Position numbers and translations under genes: made by a program. Shown here piece after piece: positions 445 to 14,317 of a stretch of 14,317 bases of DNA (within the stretch, counting starts at the first letter, position 1; each line of letters begins with the position of its first letter). The notes beneath the pieces were generated by a model. That model made no database searches and was not told the origin of the DNA. It was given only the letters and a program-made list of their open reading frames with translations. Source of the stretch: a virus (taxonomy: Duplodnaviria; Heunggongvirae; Uroviricota; Caudoviricetes); IMG/VR virus record IMGVR_UViG_2648501130_000001, positions 1 to 14,317 of that record; one strand, 5' to 3'.

Positions 445-1142
445 AAAACATCGCCGCACAGATGGTTAACTTTGACCGTGAGCAGATGTGCCGGATCGCC
501 AATAACATGCCGGAACAGTACGACGAAAAGCCGCAGGTACAGCAGGTAGCGCAGATAATCAACGGTGTATTCAGCCAGTTACTGGCAACTTTCCCAGCGA
601 GCCTGGCTAACCGGGACCAGAACGAACTGAACGAAATCCGCCGCCAGTGGGTGCTGGCTTTTCGGGAAAACGGGATCACCACAATGGAACAGGTTAACGC
701 TGGAATGCGCGTAGCCCGTCGGCAGAATCGACCATTCCTGCCATCACCCGGGCAGTTTGTTGCATGGTGCCGGGAAGAAGCATCCGTTATCGCCGGACTG
801 CCAAACGTCAGCGAGCTGGTTGATATGGTTTACGAGTATTGCCGGAAGCGAGGCCTGTATCCGGATGCGGAGTCTTATCCGTGGAAATCAAACGCGCACT
901 ACTGGCTGGTTACCAACCTGTATCAGAACATGCGGGCCAATGCGCTTACTGATGCGGAATTACGCCGTAAGGCCGCAGATGAGCTTGTCCATATGACTGC
1001 GAGAATTAACCGTGGTGAGGCGATCCCTGAACCAGTAAAACAACTTCCTGTCATGGGCGGTAGACCTCTAAATCGTGCACAGGCTCTGGCGAAGATTGCA
1101 GAAATCAAAGCTAAGTTCGGACTGAAAGGAGCCAGTGTATGA
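441..1142 (+). CDS. P: Replication protein P (DnaB helicase loader)
   Basis: 233-aa ORF MKNIAAQMVNFDREQM...KAKFGLKGASV, essentially identical in length and sequence to lambda P as I recall it. ATG overlaps the O stop; its own stop overlaps the ren start. Confidence 0.92.
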   Translation: MKNIAAQMVNFDREQMCRIANNMPEQYDEKPQVQQVAQIINGVFSQLLATFPASLANRDQNELNEIRRQWVLAFRENGITTMEQVNAGMRVARRQNRPFLPSPGQFVAWCREEASVIAGLPNVSELVDMVYEYCRKRGLYPDAESYPWKSNAHYWLVTNLYQNMRANALTDAELRRKAADELVHMTARINRGEAIPEPVKQLPVMGGRPLNRAQALAKIAEIKAKFGLKGASV

Positions 1143-1432
1143 CGGGAAAAGAAGCAATTATTCATTACCTGGGGACGCATAAGAGCTTCTGTGCGCAGGA
1201 CGTTGCTGCGGTAACAGGCGCAACAGTAACCAGCATAAACCAGGCTGCGGCTAAAATGGCGCGGACAGGAATCTTAGTTATTGATGGTAAGGTCTGGCGA
1301 ACGGTGTATTACCGGTTCGCTACCAGGGAAGAACGGGAAGGAAAGGTGAGCACGAATCTGATTTTCAAGGAGTGTCGCCAGAGTGCCGCGATGAAGCGGG
1401 TGTTGGCATTTTATCGCGGCAATTTTCAATAG
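1139..1432 (+). CDS. ren: Ren protein (lambda ren-like)
   Basis: 97-aa ORF MTGKEAIIHYLGTHKSFCAQDVAAVTGATVTSINQAAAKMAR... matches remembered lambda Ren (96 aa) in size, sequence and position directly after P. Confidence 0.85.
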   Translation: MTGKEAIIHYLGTHKSFCAQDVAAVTGATVTSINQAAAKMARTGILVIDGKVWRTVYYRFATREEREGKVSTNLIFKECRQSAAMKRVLAFYRGNFQ

Positions 1433-1468
1433 ACTATGTACATAAAAATATCATTTTTTAATACATGT

Positions 1469-1675
1469 CTAATTATTGGACGAAATTGGTTTTTGCTTTG
1501 GTTTAGTTAGCCTAGCAATCAAGCCAGAGGCAATAATGATGATCCAAGCAATTTGATGCAATGCTACTCCAATATAAGAACCTTTATAGATAATAAAGGC
1601 ATAGATCGCTAGAAACGAAATAAATATCCATAACGAAAGTTGATAAATTTTGGCGCGCATATTTAATCCAATCAA
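1469..1675 (-). CDS. Small hydrophobic membrane protein (two predicted TM helices), function unknown
   Basis: 68-aa ORF on the minus strand in an AT-rich segment, with two long hydrophobic stretches (LSLWIFISFLAIYAFIIY and IAWIIIIASGLIA) and a basic C-terminus. No recognised family, so coding status is uncertain. Confidence 0.4.
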   Translation of the reverse strand: MIGLNMRAKIYQLSLWIFISFLAIYAFIIYKGSYIGVALHQIAWIIIIASGLIARLTKPKQKPISSNN

Positions 1676-1916
1676 TCAGAAAGACGAGTAATCATAGAGG
1701 TACTATCACCCGGGTAACTATTGCTATTATGAACGGATAGGATAGAGGCTTCAATAACATATGCATCAAGTATGATGGAATATGTAGATGAAAATGACTT
1801 GTGTCAAATTTGTGGAAATGAGTACCATGTTTCTCTGAAATTGATGTCGTTAATGGCTAGTGATAGTGAACTTTTTTACTTTATAATTCCTTTGGTTATA
1901 ACAATAAGGTAAATTT

Positions 1917-2477
1917 ATGAAGAAGATAATATTATTAGCCATGATTATTGGTTCTTTAACAGGTTGCGCTAGTGTGCCACCATTGAATTTTTCAACACCT
2001 AACGTGGGAGTTAGCCAGAAAAAAATAGATGCTGAAATTAAGTCATTAACGGTATCACTTGCTCGTCCAGATGAGCAGAAAGGGGATATCACTGCTGGTA
2101 TGGAGGCTATAACTCCAATTTGGCGTGAATCTTTGCAGGAAGCACTCGACCGAATGACTATTTTTCGTGATAGTTCACCAAATACGGTTAGCTTAAATGT
2201 TAAAGTGTTGGCTCTTGACGTTCCTGCTTTTGGTGTTTCAATGACAACTAAAGCAATTGCAAGGTATGAAATAATCAACCGTGCGAATGGTGATATTATA
2301 TATACGCAGGATATTGAGTCTACCGGTACTGTTCCAGCCAGTTACGCATTCTACGGTATTGTTCGAGCACGCGAATCTGTTAATCGCGCGGTGCAAAACA
2401 ACATAACGCAGTTCTTGCAAGCATTAGAAAGTGTTGATCTTTCTCGTCCAATGTTTCCTGTTAGGGTAGCTAAATGA
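1917..2477 (+). CDS. Lipoprotein of unknown function (cargo gene)
   Basis: 186-aa ORF with a classic signal peptide and lipobox (MKKIILLAMIIGSLTG-C at Cys17). AAGG Shine-Dalgarno about 8 nt upstream. Stop overlaps the next ORF start (ATGA), suggesting an operon. AT-rich, unlike the flanking lambda DNA. Confidence 0.6.
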   Translation: MKKIILLAMIIGSLTGCASVPPLNFSTPNVGVSQKKIDAEIKSLTVSLARPDEQKGDITAGMEAITPIWRESLQEALDRMTIFRDSSPNTVSLNVKVLALDVPAFGVSMTTKAIARYEIINRANGDIIYTQDIESTGTVPASYAFYGIVRARESVNRAVQNNITQFLQALESVDLSRPMFPVRVAK

Positions 2478-2926
2478 AGCGATTATTCGTAATTGCTCCA
2501 CTCTTAGTGTTGGTTGGATGCGCACAAAATATATCGCCAAATAGTTATTCTGTTGGCTCTGTGGGCATGGTTAATCGAACTATCGCTGGTACAGTTATTA
2601 GTGCCAGGGGGGTTGATATCAGTGGGACTTCCGCGTTAGGCGGGACTGCTGGGGCTGCCGTGGGGGCAACCGCTGGTTCTGCGCTTGGTGGGGGAGTTCG
2701 TTCTAATATCGTTGGTGCCGTTGGTGGTGCAGTCATTGGTGGTATTGCCGGGGCAGCAATCGAATCTTCAGCAACAAAACAAACAGGCATGGAATATGTT
2801 GTCGAAACTGAGAATGGGAATTTAATGACCATTGTTCAAGGCAAAGATCCGTTATTTACTCAAGGAAGTAAGGTCCTTGTTTTATACGGAAACCCTTCTC
2901 GCATAATAACAGACCCGCGTCACTAA
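2474..2926 (+). CDS. Glycine-zipper lipoprotein (SlyB/YMGG-like outer-membrane lipoprotein family)
   Basis: 150-aa ORF with signal peptide and lipobox (LLVLVG-C at Cys16) followed by a long Gly/Ala-rich GxxxG-type stretch (GGTAGAAVGATAGSALGGGV...GAVGGAVIGGIAGAAIE) typical of glycine-zipper lipoproteins. Translationally coupled to the upstream lipoprotein. Confidence 0.65.
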   Translation: MKRLFVIAPLLVLVGCAQNISPNSYSVGSVGMVNRTIAGTVISARGVDISGTSALGGTAGAAVGATAGSALGGGVRSNIVGAVGGAVIGGIAGAAIESSATKQTGMEYVVETENGNLMTIVQGKDPLFTQGSKVLVLYGNPSRIITDPRH

Positions 2927-2966
2927 CATACCTTTTGATTTTGTAAAATCAATTCGTAATAATAAA

Positions 2967-2995
2967 GTCATCGGAGCTTGAACAACTCCGGTGAC
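2967..2995 (+). terminator. Stem-loop downstream of the lipoprotein operon (possible weak terminator)
   Basis: gtcatcggag (2967-2976) pairs with ctccggtgac (2986-2995) as a 10-bp stem with one G-U pair and a 9-nt loop. The following T tract is short (tt), so terminator activity is uncertain. Confidence 0.25.
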
Positions 2996-3116
2996 TTCTG
3001 CGCTAAACGGGGACGTTTATGCGCACATACAATCCAAACTCTCTTCTCCCTTCACAGATGCAGAAATGCACCTGCGATTTTTTGCATCCTGCGTTTGACC
3101 TCTGCGGAGGTGAAGC

Positions 3117-3572
3117 GTGAACCTACCACAAGATGGCATCAAATTACATCGCGGCAACTTCACCGCTATCGGCCAGCAGATCCAGCCTTATCTGGAGGAC
3201 GGAAAATGCTTTCGCATGGTGCTTAAACCGTGGCGTGAGAAACGCAGTCTTTCCCAGAATGCACTCAGCCACATGTGGTACAGCGAAATCAGTGAATACC
3301 TTATCAGCAGGGGGAAATCGTTCGCTACCGCAGCATGGGTAAAAGAAGCTCTCAAACACACATACCTCGGTTATGAAACCAAAGAACTGGTTGATGTCGT
3401 AACCGGTGAAATCACCACTATCCAGTCGTTACGCCATACCTCCGATCTTGATGCCGGAGAGATGTATGTCTTCCTGTGTAAGGTTGAAGCCTGGGCGATG
3501 AATATTGGCTGCCACCTGACTATTCCGCAGAGCTGCGAGTTCCAGCTGCTGCGCGACAAGCAGGAGGCGTAA
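3117..3572 (+). CDS. ybcN: YbcN-family protein (DLP12-type nin-region protein, reported DNA base-flipping protein)
   Basis: 151-aa ORF with GTG start, [58 protein letters not shown]..., closely matching my recollection of E. coli DLP12 YbcN (151 aa). GGAGG Shine-Dalgarno immediately upstream. Confidence 0.85.
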
Positions 3573-4984: not shown

Positions 4985-5082
4985 TTAAAGGAAAAGTTGC
5001 TGTCTGATTGTCATTAGTCTAACATTTTAAATGTTGGAATCACAACGTAGTTATTATCATATAACAGCTTGTTTCCTGATTT
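4985..5082 (+). promoter_or_regulatory. Putative late promoter (pR'-like) and Q-utilisation region
   Basis: Positional inference only: in lambdoid phages pR' and qut lie directly downstream of Q and upstream of tR'. The AT-rich segment contains -10-like hexamers (tattat/tatcat at 5052-5060) and -35-like ttggaa (5034-5039), but spacing is not canonical and I cannot place the start site. Confidence 0.3.
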
Positions 5083-5111
5083 AGCCAGCCTCCCCAAAGG
5101 CTGGTTTTTTT
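5083..5111 (+). terminator. Rho-independent terminator (tR'-like) downstream of Q
   Basis: GC-rich hairpin: agccagcc (5083-5090), 8-nt loop tccccaaa, ggctggtt (5099-5106; last two pairs G-U/A-U), running into a 7-T tract (5105-5111). Classic intrinsic terminator geometry on the + strand. Confidence 0.65.
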
Positions 5112-5139
5112 CTAATAAGTATTATTTCGGGTAGGGATT

Positions 5140-5664
5140 TTATTGTTTAACCCATAATAATTCATTGACATTGAATCCCAACTTTTGAGCGGTTCGCACA
5201 TAGTCTGCTTTTACTTTATCTGGAATAGTTGGGGTCCTTGCCAGAATCCATAGGTATTCTCTGTTCGGACCACTGACAAGAGCATACTTATACTCATCAT
5301 CCAGTTTGATTACATTATAGCCACCATAGAAGGGGCCAAAAAACGAAACCTTCAATGCTGCAGTTTTAGTATCTCCAGTAAAGTATGCTTTACCTTCGCT
5401 CTCGCTCCATTTATTTTTCGTTGGATCGTATCCACGGTTAAGTACACGAATCCCTCCGTCGTTCCGTTTTCCATAAGTAGCGCTGACCTGTTCCAGACCA
5501 CGTTCGAACCGGTTCTCGAGGCGAGCTATTTCATACCATTTTCCGAGGTAGCGGTTGGCGTCAAAATTTGTAATCGGCTGCACACCTTTAGGTGGTGTCG
5601 GGGCCTTACATGCTATAAGAGTGAAAGAGAGTGCAATGCCAGTCAACACAGGCCATAACTTCAT
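5140..5664 (-). CDS. blc: Outer-membrane lipocalin (Blc family) lipoprotein
   Basis: 174-aa ORF with signal peptide and lipobox (TLIA-C at Cys19) and the lipocalin motif NFDANRYLGKWYEIARLENRFERGLE. Aligns along its length with remembered E. coli Blc but is clearly divergent, i.e. a paralogue rather than the chromosomal blc. Confidence 0.85.
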   Translation of the reverse strand: MKLWPVLTGIALSFTLIACKAPTPPKGVQPITNFDANRYLGKWYEIARLENRFERGLEQVSATYGKRNDGGIRVLNRGYDPTKNKWSESEGKAYFTGDTKTAALKVSFFGPFYGGYNVIKLDDEYKYALVSGPNREYLWILARTPTIPDKVKADYVRTAQKLGFNVNELLWVKQ

Positions 5665-5856
5665 AATAAATCCTGTACTTTTGATAGTTGAGAGTAAGTA
5701 TGAAAGATAGATGATTACGACCGATCACTTAAAGAACTTTCATACTATATTAGGAATAGTCCATAACAGAAAAATTGTCAGTGATGACGCCAGAAAGGCA
5801 ATTTATTCCGTGCACTACACAGTTTATGTGTTAATGAATTAGTCAAGGGGGAGAAT

Positions 5857-6816
5857 ATGATAAAAAAACCTGTGATTGGAATCAGCGGTTGTTTGGCCGG
5901 TTCTGCTGTTCGTTTTGATGGTGGTCACAAAAGAGCTGACTTTTTAATGGACAAATTAGTGGAATGGGTAACATTCAGACCAGTATGTCCGGAAATGGCT
6001 ATAGGGCTGCCAGTTCCGCGTCCTGCTCTACGTCTTGTGCGCTCGATGCAAGGAAATATACGGATGTGTTTCAGCCACGACCAGAATGAGGATGTGACAG
6101 AGAGAATGACAGAGTTTAGTCGTTCTTATATGGACAAATTAAAGGATGTATCGGGGTTTGTGGTTTGTGCTAAATCTCCCAGCTGTGGCATGGAGCGCGT
6201 GCGTGTCTATGATGAAAATGGTAATCGAGGTCGTAAAGATGGAGTGGGACTATTTACGAGCACTTTGATGGAAAAGTTTTCCTGGCTACCGGTTGAAGAG
6301 GATGGGCGATTACATGATCCAGTGCTTCGTGAGAATTTTGTTGAAAGAGTTTTTGCTTTGCATGAGCTCAATCACCTTTACAAGGAGAAATTATCAAGAA
6401 GAGAGTTATTAGCTTTTCATAGTCGTTATAAGCTTCAGTTGTTGGCGCATAGTCAGGCAGGCTATAAAGATATGGGACCATTTGTGGCTGCAATACACGA
6501 GTGGGCGGACCTTGAATCATACTTTGAGGTGTATCGTGATAAGCTGATGGCGATTCTCAGAAAACCTGCATCACGTAAAAATCACACGAATGTGCTGATG
6601 CATATACAGGGGTATTTTAGTAACTACTTAAGTACACGCCAGCGTAAAGAGTTGAGCGAGGTTATACTTAACTATCGTTCTGGCACATTACCTCTTCTTG
6701 CGCCGTTGACTCTGCTGAAGCATTATCTGGGTGAGTATCCTAATGATTACTTGCTTACACAAAATTACTTCGATCCCTATCCGGACGAACTGGCTCTAAG
6801 ACTGATGGTAAATTAA
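5857..6816 (+). CDS. DUF523/DUF1722 two-domain protein (YbgA-like; TudS-type Fe-S domain plus DUF1722)
   Basis: 319-aa ORF. N-terminus (KKPVIGISGCLAGSAVRFDGGHK...RPVCPEMAIGLPVPRP...CAKSPSCGMERV) has the conserved Cys pattern I associate with DUF523/TudS; the C-terminal half resembles the DUF1722 part of E. coli YbgA. GGGGAG Shine-Dalgarno upstream. Confidence 0.8.
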   Translation: MIKKPVIGISGCLAGSAVRFDGGHKRADFLMDKLVEWVTFRPVCPEMAIGLPVPRPALRLVRSMQGNIRMCFSHDQNEDVTERMTEFSRSYMDKLKDVSGFVVCAKSPSCGMERVRVYDENGNRGRKDGVGLFTSTLMEKFSWLPVEEDGRLHDPVLRENFVERVFALHELNHLYKEKLSRRELLAFHSRYKLQLLAHSQAGYKDMGPFVAAIHEWADLESYFEVYRDKLMAILRKPASRKNHTNVLMHIQGYFSNYLSTRQRKELSEVILNYRSGTLPLLAPLTLLKHYLGEYPNDYLLTQNYFDPYPDELALRLMVN

Positions 6817-7310
6817 TTGTATGCGATATCATCCAAAAGGATGAGTTCCTGCATGCAGGATATTTACAATCGTAAAAACTACACTATGATACCCAGAGTG
6901 TCAGTTTGTATAAAAACTCTGTTTACGCTGAAGAAACAATTGAGATGCAACTTAAAGTTGGTAAACATGCCAGTCAAAATATATGATATTATGATTCCAC
7001 GCAGCTATATATAATATAACAGATTGGTTTAATAATTTGTCTTTGTGAGTTAAATACATAATTTTATACTTGTGATGTAATGAAATTTTCCTTATTGTTG
7101 AACTGGCGAATATTGATTTTCCACCTACACTTACCTGGTGTAACCCCAATGATATCAGGTGGATAATATGCCATACATATGTTCTATCATTTTGGTGTTG
7201 AATTCGTTTGATGTCCGAATTGGTAAAGAAGATATTTTGTTTAAAAAAGGAAGTGCTGTTCTCATTGATTACAATTTAAAAGATTTTTTTCATCAAATAT
7301 AGATCATGTA

Positions 7311-7898
7311 ATGATCGTAGATGTTGAAGAAAAAACAGTTAATGATTTCTTTAAAAGCAACACACTCTCACCTTTTTCTGTAAGAAGGTTTTATCCGGCA
7401 TACTTGATGGTGGAATGTGAAGATTTTTCATTGTTAAAGAACTTGATTGCATGCTTGAATTGTGATGGCAGAACTGTGGATTTTGTTAGAAATCAAATAT
7501 CACTTGCATGTCTTGCTATCTTATCTTCAGAGAAAATAGTGCAAAGTTTTTTATTTGGATGTCTTAATAGTTTAGGAAGTAAAGTTAAGGCTATTATTCA
7601 CACGGATATATCTGCAGCATGGAGACTTTGTGATATATCTTCAAGACTGTATCTGAGTGAAAGTCTGTTAAAAAGAAAATTAAAGCACGAAGGCTTATCA
7701 TTTAGTAAGTTAATTCTTGAAGAGCGAATGGTGATGGCGGAAAGGTTATTAAGCTACAATTTATATTCTGTTGGAAAAGTTGCTGAGATATGCGGTTATG
7801 AAAACACGTCATATTTTGTAAGTGTTTTCAGAAGGTATTTTGGTGTTCCTCCCCATCAATATTCATCAAGATTTTTTTTAGAAAAAGACATGATGTAA
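7311..7898 (+). CDS. Short AraC/XylS-family transcriptional regulator (AppY/GadX-like HTH domain)
   Basis: 195-aa ORF with the C-terminal AraC-type double HTH signature (...VGKVAEICGYENTSYFVSVFRRYFGVPPHQY). An in-frame stop at 7266-7268 caps the N-terminus, so the sensing domain is only about 100 aa. Very AT-rich. Confidence 0.7.
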   Translation: MIVDVEEKTVNDFFKSNTLSPFSVRRFYPAYLMVECEDFSLLKNLIACLNCDGRTVDFVRNQISLACLAILSSEKIVQSFLFGCLNSLGSKVKAIIHTDISAAWRLCDISSRLYLSESLLKRKLKHEGLSFSKLILEERMVMAERLLSYNLYSVGKVAEICGYENTSYFVSVFRRYFGVPPHQYSSRFFLEKDMM

Positions 7899-8085
7899 CG
7901 TGATGCGTTTTAATGATTTTGTAATTTTCGTATTTGATAATTGTATGATGCTTTCAGCTACGCCAGAATAATCGCGGCGTTTTTCTTTTTGAATAGATGT
8001 TCAAGCCTTACGCTAATGTAACTTCTATACCTTTCCTCTTCGTTCCGAACCGTGTACACCATCCGTTATTTGCGGAGGTGAGGCT

Positions 8086-8301: not shown

Positions 8302-8798
8302 TGCCTCCATCATTACGAAAAGCCGTTGCTGCTGCTATTGGTGGCGGAGCAATTGCTATAGCATCAGTGTTAATCACTGGCCCAAGTGGTAACGATGGTC
8401 TGGAAGGTGTCAGCTACATACCATACAAAGATATCGTTGGCGTATGGACTGTATGTCACGGGCATACAGGAAAAGACATCATTCCCGGTAAAACGTATAC
8501 CGAAGCAGAATGCAAAGCCCTCCTGAATAAAGACCTTGCCACGGTAGCCAGACAAATTAACCCGTACATCAAAGTCGATATACCGGAAACAACGCGCGGC
8601 GCTCTTTACTCGTTCGTCTATAACGTGGGCGCAGGCAATTTCAGAACATCCGCTCTTCTTCGCAAAATAAACCAGGGCGATATCAAGGGCGCATGTGACC
8701 AGCTACGTCGCTGGGCATACGCTGGCGGTAAGCAATGGAAAGGCCTGATGACTCGTCGTGAGATTGAGCGTGAGGTCTGTTTGTGGGGGCAACAATGA
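8301..8798 (+). CDS. rrrD: SAR endolysin (T4-lysozyme-type muramidase with N-terminal signal-anchor-release domain)
   Basis: 165-aa ORF starting at the holin stop (TAATG). Gly/Ala-rich weakly hydrophobic N-terminus ([20 protein letters not shown]) typical of SAR domains, followed by the E-8aa-D-5aa-T catalytic motif ([16 protein letters not shown]). Matches remembered RrrD / phage 21 R. Confidence 0.9.
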
Positions 8799-9262
8799 GC
8801 AGGGTAACCGCGATTATCTCCGCTCTGGTTATCTGCATCATCGTCTGCCTGTCATGGGCTGTTAATCATTACCGTGATAATGCAATCGCCTACAAAGAAC
8901 AGCGCGATAACAAGGCCAGTGAACTGGAGAAGGCGAACGCCACCATTACTGACATGCAGCAGCGCCAGCGTGATGCTGATGCACTCGATGATAAATACAC
9001 GAAGGAGTTAGCTGATGCGAAAGCTGAAAATGATGCTCTTCGGCGCAAGCTTGATAATGGTGGTCGGGTGCTCGTCAAAGGAAAATGCCCTGTGCCATCC
9101 TCAGCCGAAACCTCCAGCGCCTCCGGCATGGGCAATGATGCCACCGTCGAACTCTCTCCAGTTGCTGGACGAAACGTTCTCGGTATCCGGGACGGAATTA
9201 TCCGCGACCAAACAGCACTGAGAACGCTTCAGGAATACATCAGGACGCAATGCCTTCGATGA
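8795..9262 (+). CDS. rzpD: Spanin inner-membrane subunit Rz (i-spanin)
   Basis: Start taken at the ATG overlapping the endolysin stop (ATGA); the ORF track's 8783 start adds four residues. [38 protein letters not shown]... matches the lambda Rz N-terminus, with an N-terminal TM anchor and coiled-coil-like body. Confidence 0.85.
9015..9221 (+). CDS. rzoD: Spanin outer-membrane lipoprotein subunit Rz1 (o-spanin), embedded in Rz in the +1 frame
   Basis: 68-aa ORF wholly inside Rz in another frame: [19 protein letters not shown] (lipobox) followed by a Pro-rich segment ([17 protein letters not shown]), the hallmark of Rz1. Confidence 0.8.
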
Positions 9263-12293: not shown

Positions 12294-12962
12294 CTATTTT
12301 TTCCCTGAAGCGGAAAACATTACTACAGTACCTTGAACCTTGGTTTTAACATTCTCGAAATGCTCTGAGAGTATATGTGTTAAGCCTTCTTCGGAATCTT
12401 TTGTGTTTGAAAAGATGCCTTTCTGATTGTAAATGCGCATCAGTTTTTGACCGAAGCTATTGTGCACAACTCCATCGCCAAGAATTGTGGCTCCGTATAG
12501 AGTTCCATCGTCAGTTAAGGCCTGCGCCGCATTGCGTATTACACAGCTTTTTGTAGATATATTTCCAGGCAGGCAGTGAAGAAGGTAAAACATGGAAATG
12601 GAATCAAATTGACCATGTAACGCCGCGGGATAAGGTTCAAAAACATCATGGCTAATTTTATGTTTAATTTTTGATTCCCCAGCCCTTGTAGATGCCGCGT
12701 TCAGGCTAGCTTCGTTCAAATCCATTAAAGATATCAGACTACTCTCAGGTACGTGAGTAAGGTAAAACCCAGTTCCAACACCAATATCCAGATGGTTGTT
12801 ACCTAAATGTTCCAGAAAGTGTGGAAGAAGGTGTTCCTTTGTAGGACATCCCCATGCAAGCCGATTTGATACTCCCAAAACCCACCAGTCATAAAGCTTT
12901 AGGGTAAGTGGTGTGTAAATTTTAGCCCCATCATCTGTGTTTTTTTTCATTAATTTCACCAT
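12294..12962 (-). CDS. ybcY: Class I SAM-dependent methyltransferase (YbcY-like), apparently intact
   Basis: 222-aa minus-strand ORF with Rossmann-fold methyltransferase motif I (HLDIGVGTGFYL). Resembles the DLP12 ybcY product, which I recall as a disrupted gene in E. coli K-12; here the frame is open throughout. Alternative start at 12950 (MKKNT...). Confidence 0.75.
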   Translation of the reverse strand: MVKLMKKNTDDGAKIYTPLTLKLYDWWVLGVSNRLAWGCPTKEHLLPHFLEHLGNNHLDIGVGTGFYLTHVPESSLISLMDLNEASLNAASTRAGESKIKHKISHDVFEPYPAALHGQFDSISMFYLLHCLPGNISTKSCVIRNAAQALTDDGTLYGATILGDGVVHNSFGQKLMRIYNQKGIFSNTKDSEEGLTHILSEHFENVKTKVQGTVVMFSASGKK

Positions 12963-13361: not shown

Positions 13362-14234
13362 TTATTTTGAGTGAATTATCACCTTGTTTTTTCCGGTTCT
13401 TTTGGCTTGATATAACGCTTTATCGGCATTGACTAACATTTCAGATGGGCTGAGATTATTCTCTTTTGAAGTAAAGCAACCAATACTGACAGTTATTTTC
13501 TCAGGTCCATGCGATAATAATTTTTCCGAGCATTGCTCTTCAATGTTTTTTCTGATTCGCTCTGCAATTGATAGCAAGAGCTTTTGAGTATTACCTTTAA
13601 TGATAATACCGAACTCCTCACCGCCTAAGCGCCCTAATACATCCTCTTTCCTGATGGATTTTTTTATTATTCTGGTAACCATTACTATGACTTGATCACC
13701 CATATGATGCCCCCATTTGTCATTGATGCTTTTGAAACTGTCAATATCTAACATTATTACTGAGAAATCATGGTGTTTTGATATATTCTTCAATGAGTCA
13801 ATAAAGTATCTTCTATTGTATGTATTCGTTAGTGGATCATGAATTGCCATATGATTAGCATGATTTAATTTCCTGAAAACATAATACATGAGTGTTGAAA
13901 TGATATAAATCATTGATATCAATTCAAGAAATTTTGTCATATACCATGCAGGATGGGATTTATCAATAAAATACAATAAAATTAGATTATTGCATACTGA
14001 CACTATACTAATAAGTATTATACACAACCATATTTTTGAGTAATTACGTATGCTGATGCATGAGCTGATAAGTAATACAAGCCAAAATACTGATATTATT
14101 TTGGTGTACACGATATTCCACGTCGGCAAATGACGATTCAGCGAGTATTGTATAATATTAAGACTATATTTTATATTGTCACTGCTTAGATTTTTTGCTA
14201 CAAACGGAGTAATAAAAAGAATTAATATTGACAA
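13362..14234 (-). CDS. Membrane-anchored GGDEF-domain diguanylate cyclase (intact GGEEF active site and RxxD I-site)
   Basis: 290-aa minus-strand ORF with an N-terminal half of several hydrophobic helices and a C-terminal GGDEF domain (HDPLTNTYNRRYF...IMLDIDSFKSINDKWGHHMGD...IRKEDVLGRLGGEEFGIII): RKED lies five residues before GGEEF. Strongly AT-rich. The true N-terminus may lie upstream of the annotated Met. Confidence 0.85.
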   Translation of the reverse strand: MSILILFITPFVAKNLSSDNIKYSLNIIQYSLNRHLPTWNIVYTKIISVFWLVLLISSCISIRNYSKIWLCIILISIVSVCNNLILLYFIDKSHPAWYMTKFLELISMIYIISTLMYYVFRKLNHANHMAIHDPLTNTYNRRYFIDSLKNISKHHDFSVIMLDIDSFKSINDKWGHHMGDQVIVMVTRIIKKSIRKEDVLGRLGGEEFGIIIKGNTQKLLLSIAERIRKNIEEQCSEKLLSHGPEKITVSIGCFTSKENNLSPSEMLVNADKALYQAKRTGKNKVIIHSK

Positions 14235-14317
14235 AACAACAATTATTATGTTTCTTTTATCTTCTAAAACACTTTTATTTTTAACATTGGTGGAATAAAC
14301 AGCCAGAAAGATTATAG

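Follow-up and report, generated by a model that had tools for sequence, protein, structure and literature searches.

What is encoded by a small AT-rich island that sits between ren and the nin genes of a lambdoid prophage, where does it come from, and what could its products do in the host cell? The island lies in the first 14,317 nucleotides of the IMG/VR record IMGVR_UViG_2648501130_000001, a stretch called the window below. An initial annotation, made without database searches, had described a compositionally distinct insert encoding a two-transmembrane protein of 68 amino acids (aa) and, divergently, a 186-aa lipoprotein coupled to a 150-aa glycine-zipper lipoprotein (p186 and p150 hereafter). 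All three open reading frames (ORFs) are present at the positions given there (Table 1). Our analysis indicates that the island is a mobile moron built around the p186-p150 gene pair, which is under purifying selection and occurs far beyond phages, and that the evidence does not bear out the 68-aa ORF as a gene. The pair may form a two-lipoprotein outer-membrane complex that stabilises or remodels the envelope, a model that we consider about evenly balanced between right and wrong.

The host element is a defective lambdoid prophage of Escherichia coli located at att-lambda, between ybhC and ybhB/bioA, and the window covers part of it. Its O, P and ren genes are of the lambda type, its nin, Q and lysis regions are of the DLP12/phage-82 type, and its head and tail genes are absent or fragmentary. 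The insert is flanked by ren and by a ybcN/NinB-type gene, and its guanine-plus-cytosine (GC) content is 0.397 (1408-2933) versus 0.533 in the left flank and 0.503 in the right flank. Both borders are sharp: on the left, P-ren homology of the lambda/phage-21 type ends at about 1407, within the last ren codons, and on the right, homology to the phage-82/4A7-type ybcN region starts at about 2933, seven bases past the p150 stop codon. In related phages the ren-nin slot is occupied by alternative cargo (an SMR pump, a ybcK recombinase, an esterase) and is therefore a cargo hot-spot. The GC contrast, the breakpoints and the other cargo in the same slot all agree with the insert as it was first described. 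Around the island, a search for flanking or target-site repeats returned only short matches of the chance kind, and an Rfam scan of 1300-3300 matched nothing. The left part of the island has a history of its own. DNA homology with Klebsiella oxytoca, the closest foreign locus, begins exactly at the p186 ATG (1917), and neither the 68-aa ORF nor any DNA or protein homology to the 484 bp upstream (1433-1916) was found at a pair-carrying locus outside E. coli, so that this segment is separate in origin. Within E. coli it always accompanies the pair, to which it contributes a promoter at most.

The two lipoprotein genes form an operon. Both products start with a signal peptide and a lipobox followed by Ala at position +2, which is the outer-membrane sorting type; in p150, the lipobox LVGC16 precedes Ala-Gln, with no Asp at +2, and the Cys is kept in all homologues. 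Both genes also display a clear periodicity of GC by codon position (0.49/0.43/0.30 for p186 and 0.56/0.52/0.34 for p150). The p186 stop and the p150 start share an ATGA overlap which, as read directly from the sequence, gives translational coupling of the two genes. Together with the lipoboxes, this overlap upholds the coupled two-lipoprotein operon proposed at first. Upstream of p186 we located a Shine-Dalgarno motif and a candidate sigma-70 promoter; inspection by eye for a PhoP box in the same region gave only a poor half-site, and no canonical terminator was found downstream of the operon.

The 150-aa protein could be assigned to a known family. In a phmmer search against PDB sequences, SlyB (7OJF/7OJG) was the sole significant match (7ojf_A, E 1.3e-14, residues 2-149 aligned to 3-155), and BLASTP gave 33% identity to SlyB over the full length. 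In the AlphaFold2 model of p150, which has a predicted local distance difference test score (pLDDT) of 68.7, residues 55-101 fold into a helical hairpin, accompanied by a single beta-strand and a C-terminal beta-domain. Foldseek matched this model to 7ojf_A, the SlyB chain of a SlyB13-BamA complex, as its only significant PDB match (E 1.7e-8, probability 1.00, TM-scores of 0.63/0.68 over 138 columns). The hairpin is Gly/Ala-rich, which agrees with the glycine-zipper description, and p150 can be placed more precisely in the SlyB family. Over residues 55-103, p150 itself falls below the gathering scores of the Pfam models PF05433 (21.1 versus 24.2 bits) and PF13488 (16.9 versus 25), the latter being matched (E <= 0.01) by 21 of 22 close family members. 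SlyB reportedly binds phospholipid through I65, V69 and F73 and contacts lipid A through T77 (10.64898/2026.06.08.730324). These four residues align to T58, A62, T66 and A70 of p150, and the family as a whole has small residues (T/G/A/S, A, T/V/A and A/G/S) at these positions, which fall in a Gly/Ala-rich region where the alignment is somewhat uncertain. Because the three phospholipid-binding residues of SlyB are replaced, we classify p150, judged by both sequence and predicted model, as a member of a distinct subfamily of the SlyB family and not as an orthologue of canonical SlyB. The TraT Pfam model gave weak matches to 3 of 22 p150-family members (best E 0.002), and TraT chains were the next, non-significant Foldseek matches after SlyB, which hints that the SlyB-type and TraT-type helical hairpins may be related.

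The 186-aa protein, which the initial annotation could not place, indeed belongs to no curated family. It has no match in Pfam, NCBIfam or PADLOC and falls in PHROG 12521, whose function is unknown. A Pfam search with 20 members of its family returned nothing at E <= 1 except the lipobox motif, its profile found nothing credible among PDB sequences, and a viral fold search in BFVD gave low-TM, uninformative matches only. The family is nevertheless large: an exhaustive profile search collected 901 clusters at 50% identity, and homologues 60-84% identical to p186 are found in Klebsiella, Serratia, Edaphovirga, Bordetella, Xanthomonas, Stenotrophomonas, Luteimonas and others. In the AlphaFold2 model (pLDDT 82.6, predicted TM-score 0.76), a beta-alpha-beta-beta-beta-alpha domain stands behind a conserved tether, and p186 is thus predicted to have an alpha/beta fold of the LptE/PqiC/PelC type with an N-terminal lipid anchor. 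Such a fold occurs among lipoproteins that form rings or plugs beneath or within the outer membrane, such as the PelC dodecamer, the CsgG nonamer and LptE. The tether that follows the lipidated Cys is near-invariant (C-x-x-x-PPLNFSVPNVG), and p150 is likewise near-invariant directly after its lipidated Cys (SPxSYSVGSVGQVNR). Tethers conserved to this degree are unusual for lipoprotein linkers and point to a specific contact. A Rosetta-stone search for fused forms yielded long p186-family members without a Pfam domain or a SlyB-like part, one of them with a SHOCT tail.

Database names for this family proved misleading. Members from Escherichia, Klebsiella, Bordetella, Xanthomonas, Lysobacter, Stenotrophomonas and Pusillimonas carry the label 'UDP-N-acetylglucosamine acyltransferase' in NCBI and UniRef, and the newer label of the NCBI annotation pipeline (PGAP) is 'YajG family lipoprotein'. 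The identity of p186 with LpxA is ruled out by its signal peptide and lipobox, its alpha/beta fold, and the failure to match any hexapeptide or acyltransferase domain; the acyltransferase label is a propagated mis-annotation. Two further candidates were rejected, namely a lipoprotein of the type VI secretion system (IglE) and TUL4, whose matches span the signal peptide only. A spanin or lysis role of the pair was set aside as well, on account of the wrong genome module, the outer-membrane sorting of both lipoproteins and a distribution that is largely non-phage.

The association of the two genes is strongly conserved. Using one GTDB genome per species, we collected 54 genomic loci with a p186 relative, of which 49 have a p150 relative directly downstream on the same strand. 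The hosts are Gamma-, Beta- and Alphaproteobacteria and the Chthoniobacteraceae (Verrucomicrobia). A 4-nt A/GTGA overlap occurs in 36 of the 48 scorable loci, and the spacing does not exceed 4 nt in 47 of the 48. No conserved third neighbour gene was found at these loci, where apparent extra clusters turned out to be opposite-strand shadow ORFs. It had been proposed to check whether the three ORFs co-occur in other prophages: the pair does, and the 68-aa ORF never accompanies it outside the E. coli element. In comparisons with the Klebsiella and Edaphovirga copies, the proportion of synonymous differences is 0.73-0.85 (saturated) and that of nonsynonymous differences 0.10-0.24, indicating strong purifying selection on the pair. 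The pair is an ancient, self-contained and widely distributed unit. Some viral loci have a different gene downstream of p186, encoding a 95-aa signal-peptide protein or a 143-aa Cys-rich putative lipoprotein (L104, 6001-6851; L105, 5971-7042), and such replacement may reflect partner swapping. Downstream of an orphan p186 gene in Photorhabdus caribbeanensis (L037, 5268-6049) there is a regular DNA repeat array whose translation, on either strand, yields periodic FLSCLYGSE and VHCRTGSLE motifs, probably of the CRISPR or repetitive extragenic palindromic type.

The distribution of the island points to mobility. An identical island is present in 280 of 5426 complete E. coli genomes (about 5%), always on the chromosome and at least 99% identical, and at least 80% of the operon is kept in 279 of these 280. 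Judged by strain names, the enteroaggregative strain 042 and members of the high-risk ST410 lineage are presumably among the carriers. One further copy resides in the complete phage PhiR30_1, which reportedly stems from work of Brenes and Laub in 2025. No plasmid carriage was detected, the only plasmid hit being a partial match of 26% identity in Vibrio. Some strains carry insertion sequences in the island: EC21Z strains have an IS2 in the interval from p150 to ybcN, with both genes of the pair intact (L108, 2514-3742), and in strain CUVET20-1573 (NZ_CP098858) p186 is interrupted near codon 90 by an IS5. In other bacteria the surroundings of the pair vary from genus to genus and are for the most part accessory islands, so the pair has no fixed chromosomal housekeeping context. 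It is found by a umuDC/SRAP region in Klebsiella, at the edge of a prophage/toxin-antitoxin island in Bordetella, in a P4-type integrase island in Edaphovirga, with a SRAP-recombinase plus HigBA-like module in Alcaligenaceae and in a transposase/NERD/PAAR-Tle1 island in Luteimonas; it adjoins pgaABCD in Xanthomonas and stands between a FecIR/TonB-receptor operon and ispH-lspA-ileS in Stenotrophomonas. Among viruses, IMG/VR provided 37 loci, 20 with the E. coli version and 17 divergent (54-73% identity), 13 of which kept the pair; over all 37, the two genes are adjacent and co-oriented in 33. In an enterobacterial siphovirus the pair lies between the tape-measure gene and a gpM-like minor tail gene, in a high-GC temperate phage it lies beside a CI-like repressor and the CII/O region, and a low-GC lambdoid phage, like the E. 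coli prophage, has a p186 gene in the nin/Q region. With three insertion sites in unrelated phages and copies outside phages, the island is a mobile moron that was captured independently by several phage lineages.

How might the two lipoproteins work together? Since both the coupling and the co-inheritance are conserved, a stoichiometric complex is the reading we prefer: the coupled operon would deliver the two lipoproteins in fixed proportion, and a single complex is their most likely working form. PqiC assembles as an octameric toroid (PMC10897342), and the TraT decamer, each chain of which joins an LptE-like core to a pair of transmembrane helices, has an alpha-helical barrel in the outer membrane (PMC12658005, PMC11733297). 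The assemblies of SlyB and YfgH are transmembrane rings in which lipids and outer-membrane proteins are kept together under envelope stress (10.64898/2025.12.22.696046, 10.64898/2026.06.08.730324). By analogy with SlyB and YfgH, p150 could supply a ring of transmembrane hairpins. By analogy with PqiC, PelC, CsgG, LptE and the TraT core, p186 could supply a ring, plug or client on the periplasmic side that docks onto the p150 ring or caps it. The assembly would then resemble a two-chain SlyB nanodomain or a TraT-like structure, and would stabilise or remodel the outer membrane. The operon's own promoter would drive its expression in lysogens, where the products would serve lysogenic conversion by making the envelope more robust. 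An envelope role is favoured because most copies are chromosomal.

Several observations speak against this model of a joint envelope complex. Orphan p186 genes exist in Photorhabdus, Budvicia and Massilia, and a few phage p186 genes are followed by another small secreted protein or lipoprotein, so that p186 can work without a SlyB-like partner. The disruption of p186 by IS5 in at least one strain implies that the module is dispensable in E. coli. The loss of the SlyB phospholipid-binding residues in p150 means that the SlyB mechanism may not transfer, and the p150 model is only moderately confident. The number of sigma-70-like sites in the region is no higher than expected by chance, and the candidate promoter is in this sense not statistically distinctive. 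Finally, the interaction, the oligomer and the phenotype are all put forward at the level of a proposal.

These points leave room for other readings, the main rival being receptor masking or superinfection exclusion, in which a p150 ring with p186 would occlude the outer-membrane receptor of phages or conjugative pili in the manner of Cor, Llp or TraT. The positions in temperate phages are indeed classical for exclusion genes (beside cI, in the tail module at what is often a cor/llp-type site, and in nin), SlyB encircles outer-membrane proteins such as BamA (7OJF), and the weak TraT matches of the p150 family recall a protein that fuses an LptE-like core to a transmembrane hairpin and serves in surface exclusion (PMC12658005). 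However, occurrences that are mostly chromosomal and outside phages argue for a general envelope role, likeness to Cor, Llp and Bor is confined to the signal peptide, PADLOC gives no match, and very high conservation across hosts with different receptors is unlike a receptor-specific binder; we judge this explanation unlikely. A related and bolder architecture, which we regard as a tentative possibility, is a split TraT-like 'cork' or dedicated nanodomain, with a p150 ring around a p186 ring or capped by it, captured at three positions by several phage lineages as a lysogenic-conversion or exclusion device. If true, such a device could, for instance, tie up one particular outer-membrane receptor or toughen the envelope of the lysogen. 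The island could also be neutral passenger DNA of a defective prophage, functionless in E. coli. The prophage is defective, IS2 or IS5 are found in or beside the island in some strains, and the near-identity of the E. coli copies fits recent clonal spread; yet the operon is retained in nearly all carriers, the identical island occurs in an infective phage, and both the strong purifying selection and the repeated phage capture tell against neutrality, making this improbable.

The remaining two readings concern the identity and the number of the genes. One holds that p186 is an orthologue of a known protein, LpxA-like or YajG, and the pair ordinary envelope housekeeping. The NCBI and UniRef names speak for the former and the newer PGAP label for YajG, as do an hhalign comparison with K-12 YajG (probability 75%, E 2.5e-5, 119 columns) and a BLASTP match of 26% identity (E 2e-4). 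Part of the hhalign score, however, comes from the signal peptide, which the aligned columns include, the Pfam YajG model is reached by 0 of 20 family members, and the NCBIfam model PRK11627 scores 11.4 bits, on the signal peptide only, against a cut-off of 242 bits. LpxA fails on the grounds given above, and a gene found in only 5% of E. coli genomes hardly fits housekeeping, so this reading seems to us very improbable. The other is a three-gene system in which the divergent 68-aa two-transmembrane protein is a partner of the pair, as an inner-membrane component or regulator. This ORF has two hydrophobic stretches (Kyte-Doolittle about 2.0), always occurs with the pair in E. coli and is annotated as a hypothetical protein in the PhiR30_1 record. 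Against it, the ORF is absent at all 52 non-E. coli genomic loci and at all 17 divergent viral loci carrying the lipoprotein genes, ORFs of at least 68 aa arise in 10.5% of 2000 dinucleotide-preserving shuffles of 1433-1916, its GC content by codon position is flat (0.32/0.35/0.33), and RefSeq does not call it. Among 5.8 billion clusters its only relatives are five from E. coli, with identities of 86% or more and too alike to reveal selection, and its hydrophobicity could be a reflection of the T-rich strand. The 68-aa ORF is thus not supported as a gene, which corrects the first description, and a three-gene system is hardly credible.

The envelope complex of p186 and p150 would have several implications. 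In the literature accessible to our search, neither this pairing nor its repeated acquisition by phages is described; what is new is a subfamily of a known family (p150) joined to an undescribed, highly conserved family with a known fold (p186). Glycine-zipper lipoproteins of the SlyB type have lately come to be seen as scaffolds, induced by stress, that preserve the integrity of the Gram-negative outer membrane. To our knowledge, the known examples, SlyB and YfgH, act alone. A SlyB subfamily that is almost always coupled to a partner with the fold of ring-formers suggests a new nanodomain or plug architecture of the outer membrane. The pair is a candidate lysogenic-conversion factor that could affect envelope robustness, tolerance to antimicrobial peptides or serum, and susceptibility to phages or conjugation, and its compact 1-kb operon is directly clonable.

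Table 1. Features of the cargo island, its flanks and other cargo of the prophage (window positions)
Feature	Position	Strand	Remarks
AT-rich cargo island (moron)	1408-2933		Between ren and ybcN/ninB-type gene; from homology breakpoints and GC
Left segment of island	1433-1916		GC 0.318; separate origin; no foreign homology; holds 68-aa ORF and operon upstream region
68-aa hydrophobic ORF	1469-1675	-	TTG start; alternative ATG at 1660 gives 63 aa; unsupported as gene
Candidate sigma-70 promoter	1860-1887	+	GTGATA-16-TATAAT; 10/12 matches in consensus scan; about 30 nt upstream of p186 start
Shine-Dalgarno motif AAGG	1905-1908	+	Upstream of p186
p186 gene (186 aa)	1917-2477	+	Lipoprotein; lipobox LTGC, Cys17 at 1965-1967
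ATGA stop/start overlap	2474-2477	+	p186/p150
p150 gene (150 aa)	2474-2926	+	Lipoprotein; lipobox LVGC, Cys16 at 2519-2521
Glycine-zipper helical hairpin of p150	2636-2776	+	Residues 55-101; predicted transmembrane element (AlphaFold2 model); aligns with SlyB hairpin
ren	1139-1432		Left flank
Hairpin, 12 bp	2965-2997	+	No U-tract; right flank, outside insert; from RNA fold of 2920-3020
33-aa ORF	3019-3120		Right flank
ybcN/NinB-type gene	3117-3572		Right flank
Second AT-rich island	4985-8085		GC down to 0.29
Lipocalin-family lipoprotein	5140-5664	-	Lipobox LIAC; in second island
YbgA-family protein	5857-6816		In second island
AraC-type helix-turn-helix gene	~7170-7898		Frameshifted; in second island
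Rz-type i-spanin	8783-9262		
Embedded lipoprotein ORF	9015-9221		+1 frame within Rz-type gene; lipobox VVGC
Class I methyltransferase	12294-12962	-	S-adenosylmethionine-dependent
GGDEF diguanylate cyclase gene	13362-14317		Extends past window

Beyond the right border of the insert, the phage-82-type flank opens with a stable hairpin that precedes the 33-aa ORF and ybcN. The folding energy of 2920-3020 is -27.2 kcal/mol (z = -4.06), a stability reached by 0 of 200 shuffles. Lacking a U-tract, the hairpin does not qualify as a canonical intrinsic terminator, and it may serve the nin region as a terminator or as a regulatory element.

The same prophage carries other cargo. The second AT-rich island stands between the Q antiterminator gene and the holin gene essD, a slot that is the nmpC/ompC or stx site in other lambdoid phages. 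Upstream of the window (L001, 9000-10573), the gene of a HipA-family kinase and a DUF3037 gene overlap beside an S24 (CI-like) repressor, in the rexAB position, the two being a candidate toxin-antitoxin or abortive-infection pair. At the distal end of the prophage, among tail-fibre remnants, are the methyltransferase gene and the GGDEF gene, whose copy in NZ_CP033401 encodes a 443-aa sensor-domain protein; both look like further cargo next to ybhB/bioA. In the lysis region, the i-spanin gene with its embedded lipoprotein ORF has the usual Rz/Rz1 arrangement, where RefSeq instead has a 'lysis protein' and a hypothetical protein of 50 aa.

How, then, does the pair compare with known systems? SlyB and p150 are alike in length and lipobox and, going by the p150 model, in the single beta-strand, the putative glycine-zipper hairpin and the C-terminal beta-domain. 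However, slyB is a slyA-linked, monocistronic core gene, regulated by PhoPQ in E. coli and Salmonella, whereas p150 is prophage-borne, mobile and coupled to a partner lipoprotein. For p186, no sequence similarity is detectable to PqiC/DUF330 (ABC_trans_aux), LptE, PelC or CsgG, and in annotated neighbourhoods its loci are never linked to pqiAB/MCE, lptD, pelB or csg/curli genes; its partner is SlyB-like. YajG, whose own function is unknown, resembles p186 in size, lipobox and a weak profile similarity, but yajG is a core gene next to ampG without a SlyB-like partner. As with the Bor, Cor and Llp morons, we are dealing with small lipoprotein genes of deviant composition that lie between conserved phage genes and are candidates for lysogenic conversion; unlike them, p186 and p150 form a two-gene unit with a wide non-phage distribution. 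Cor (phrog_1119) matches the pair proteins at the signal-peptide level only (E 0.11-0.25, residues 1-22), and PADLOC has no match at E <= 1 for any of the three predicted proteins. A further parallel in architecture is TraT, the surface-exclusion and serum-resistance lipoprotein of IncF plasmids, which holds an LptE-like core and two transmembrane helices in one chain, whereas p186 and p150 would distribute the same elements over two. Both TraT and the pair have chromosomal relatives, and both have been captured repeatedly by mobile elements.

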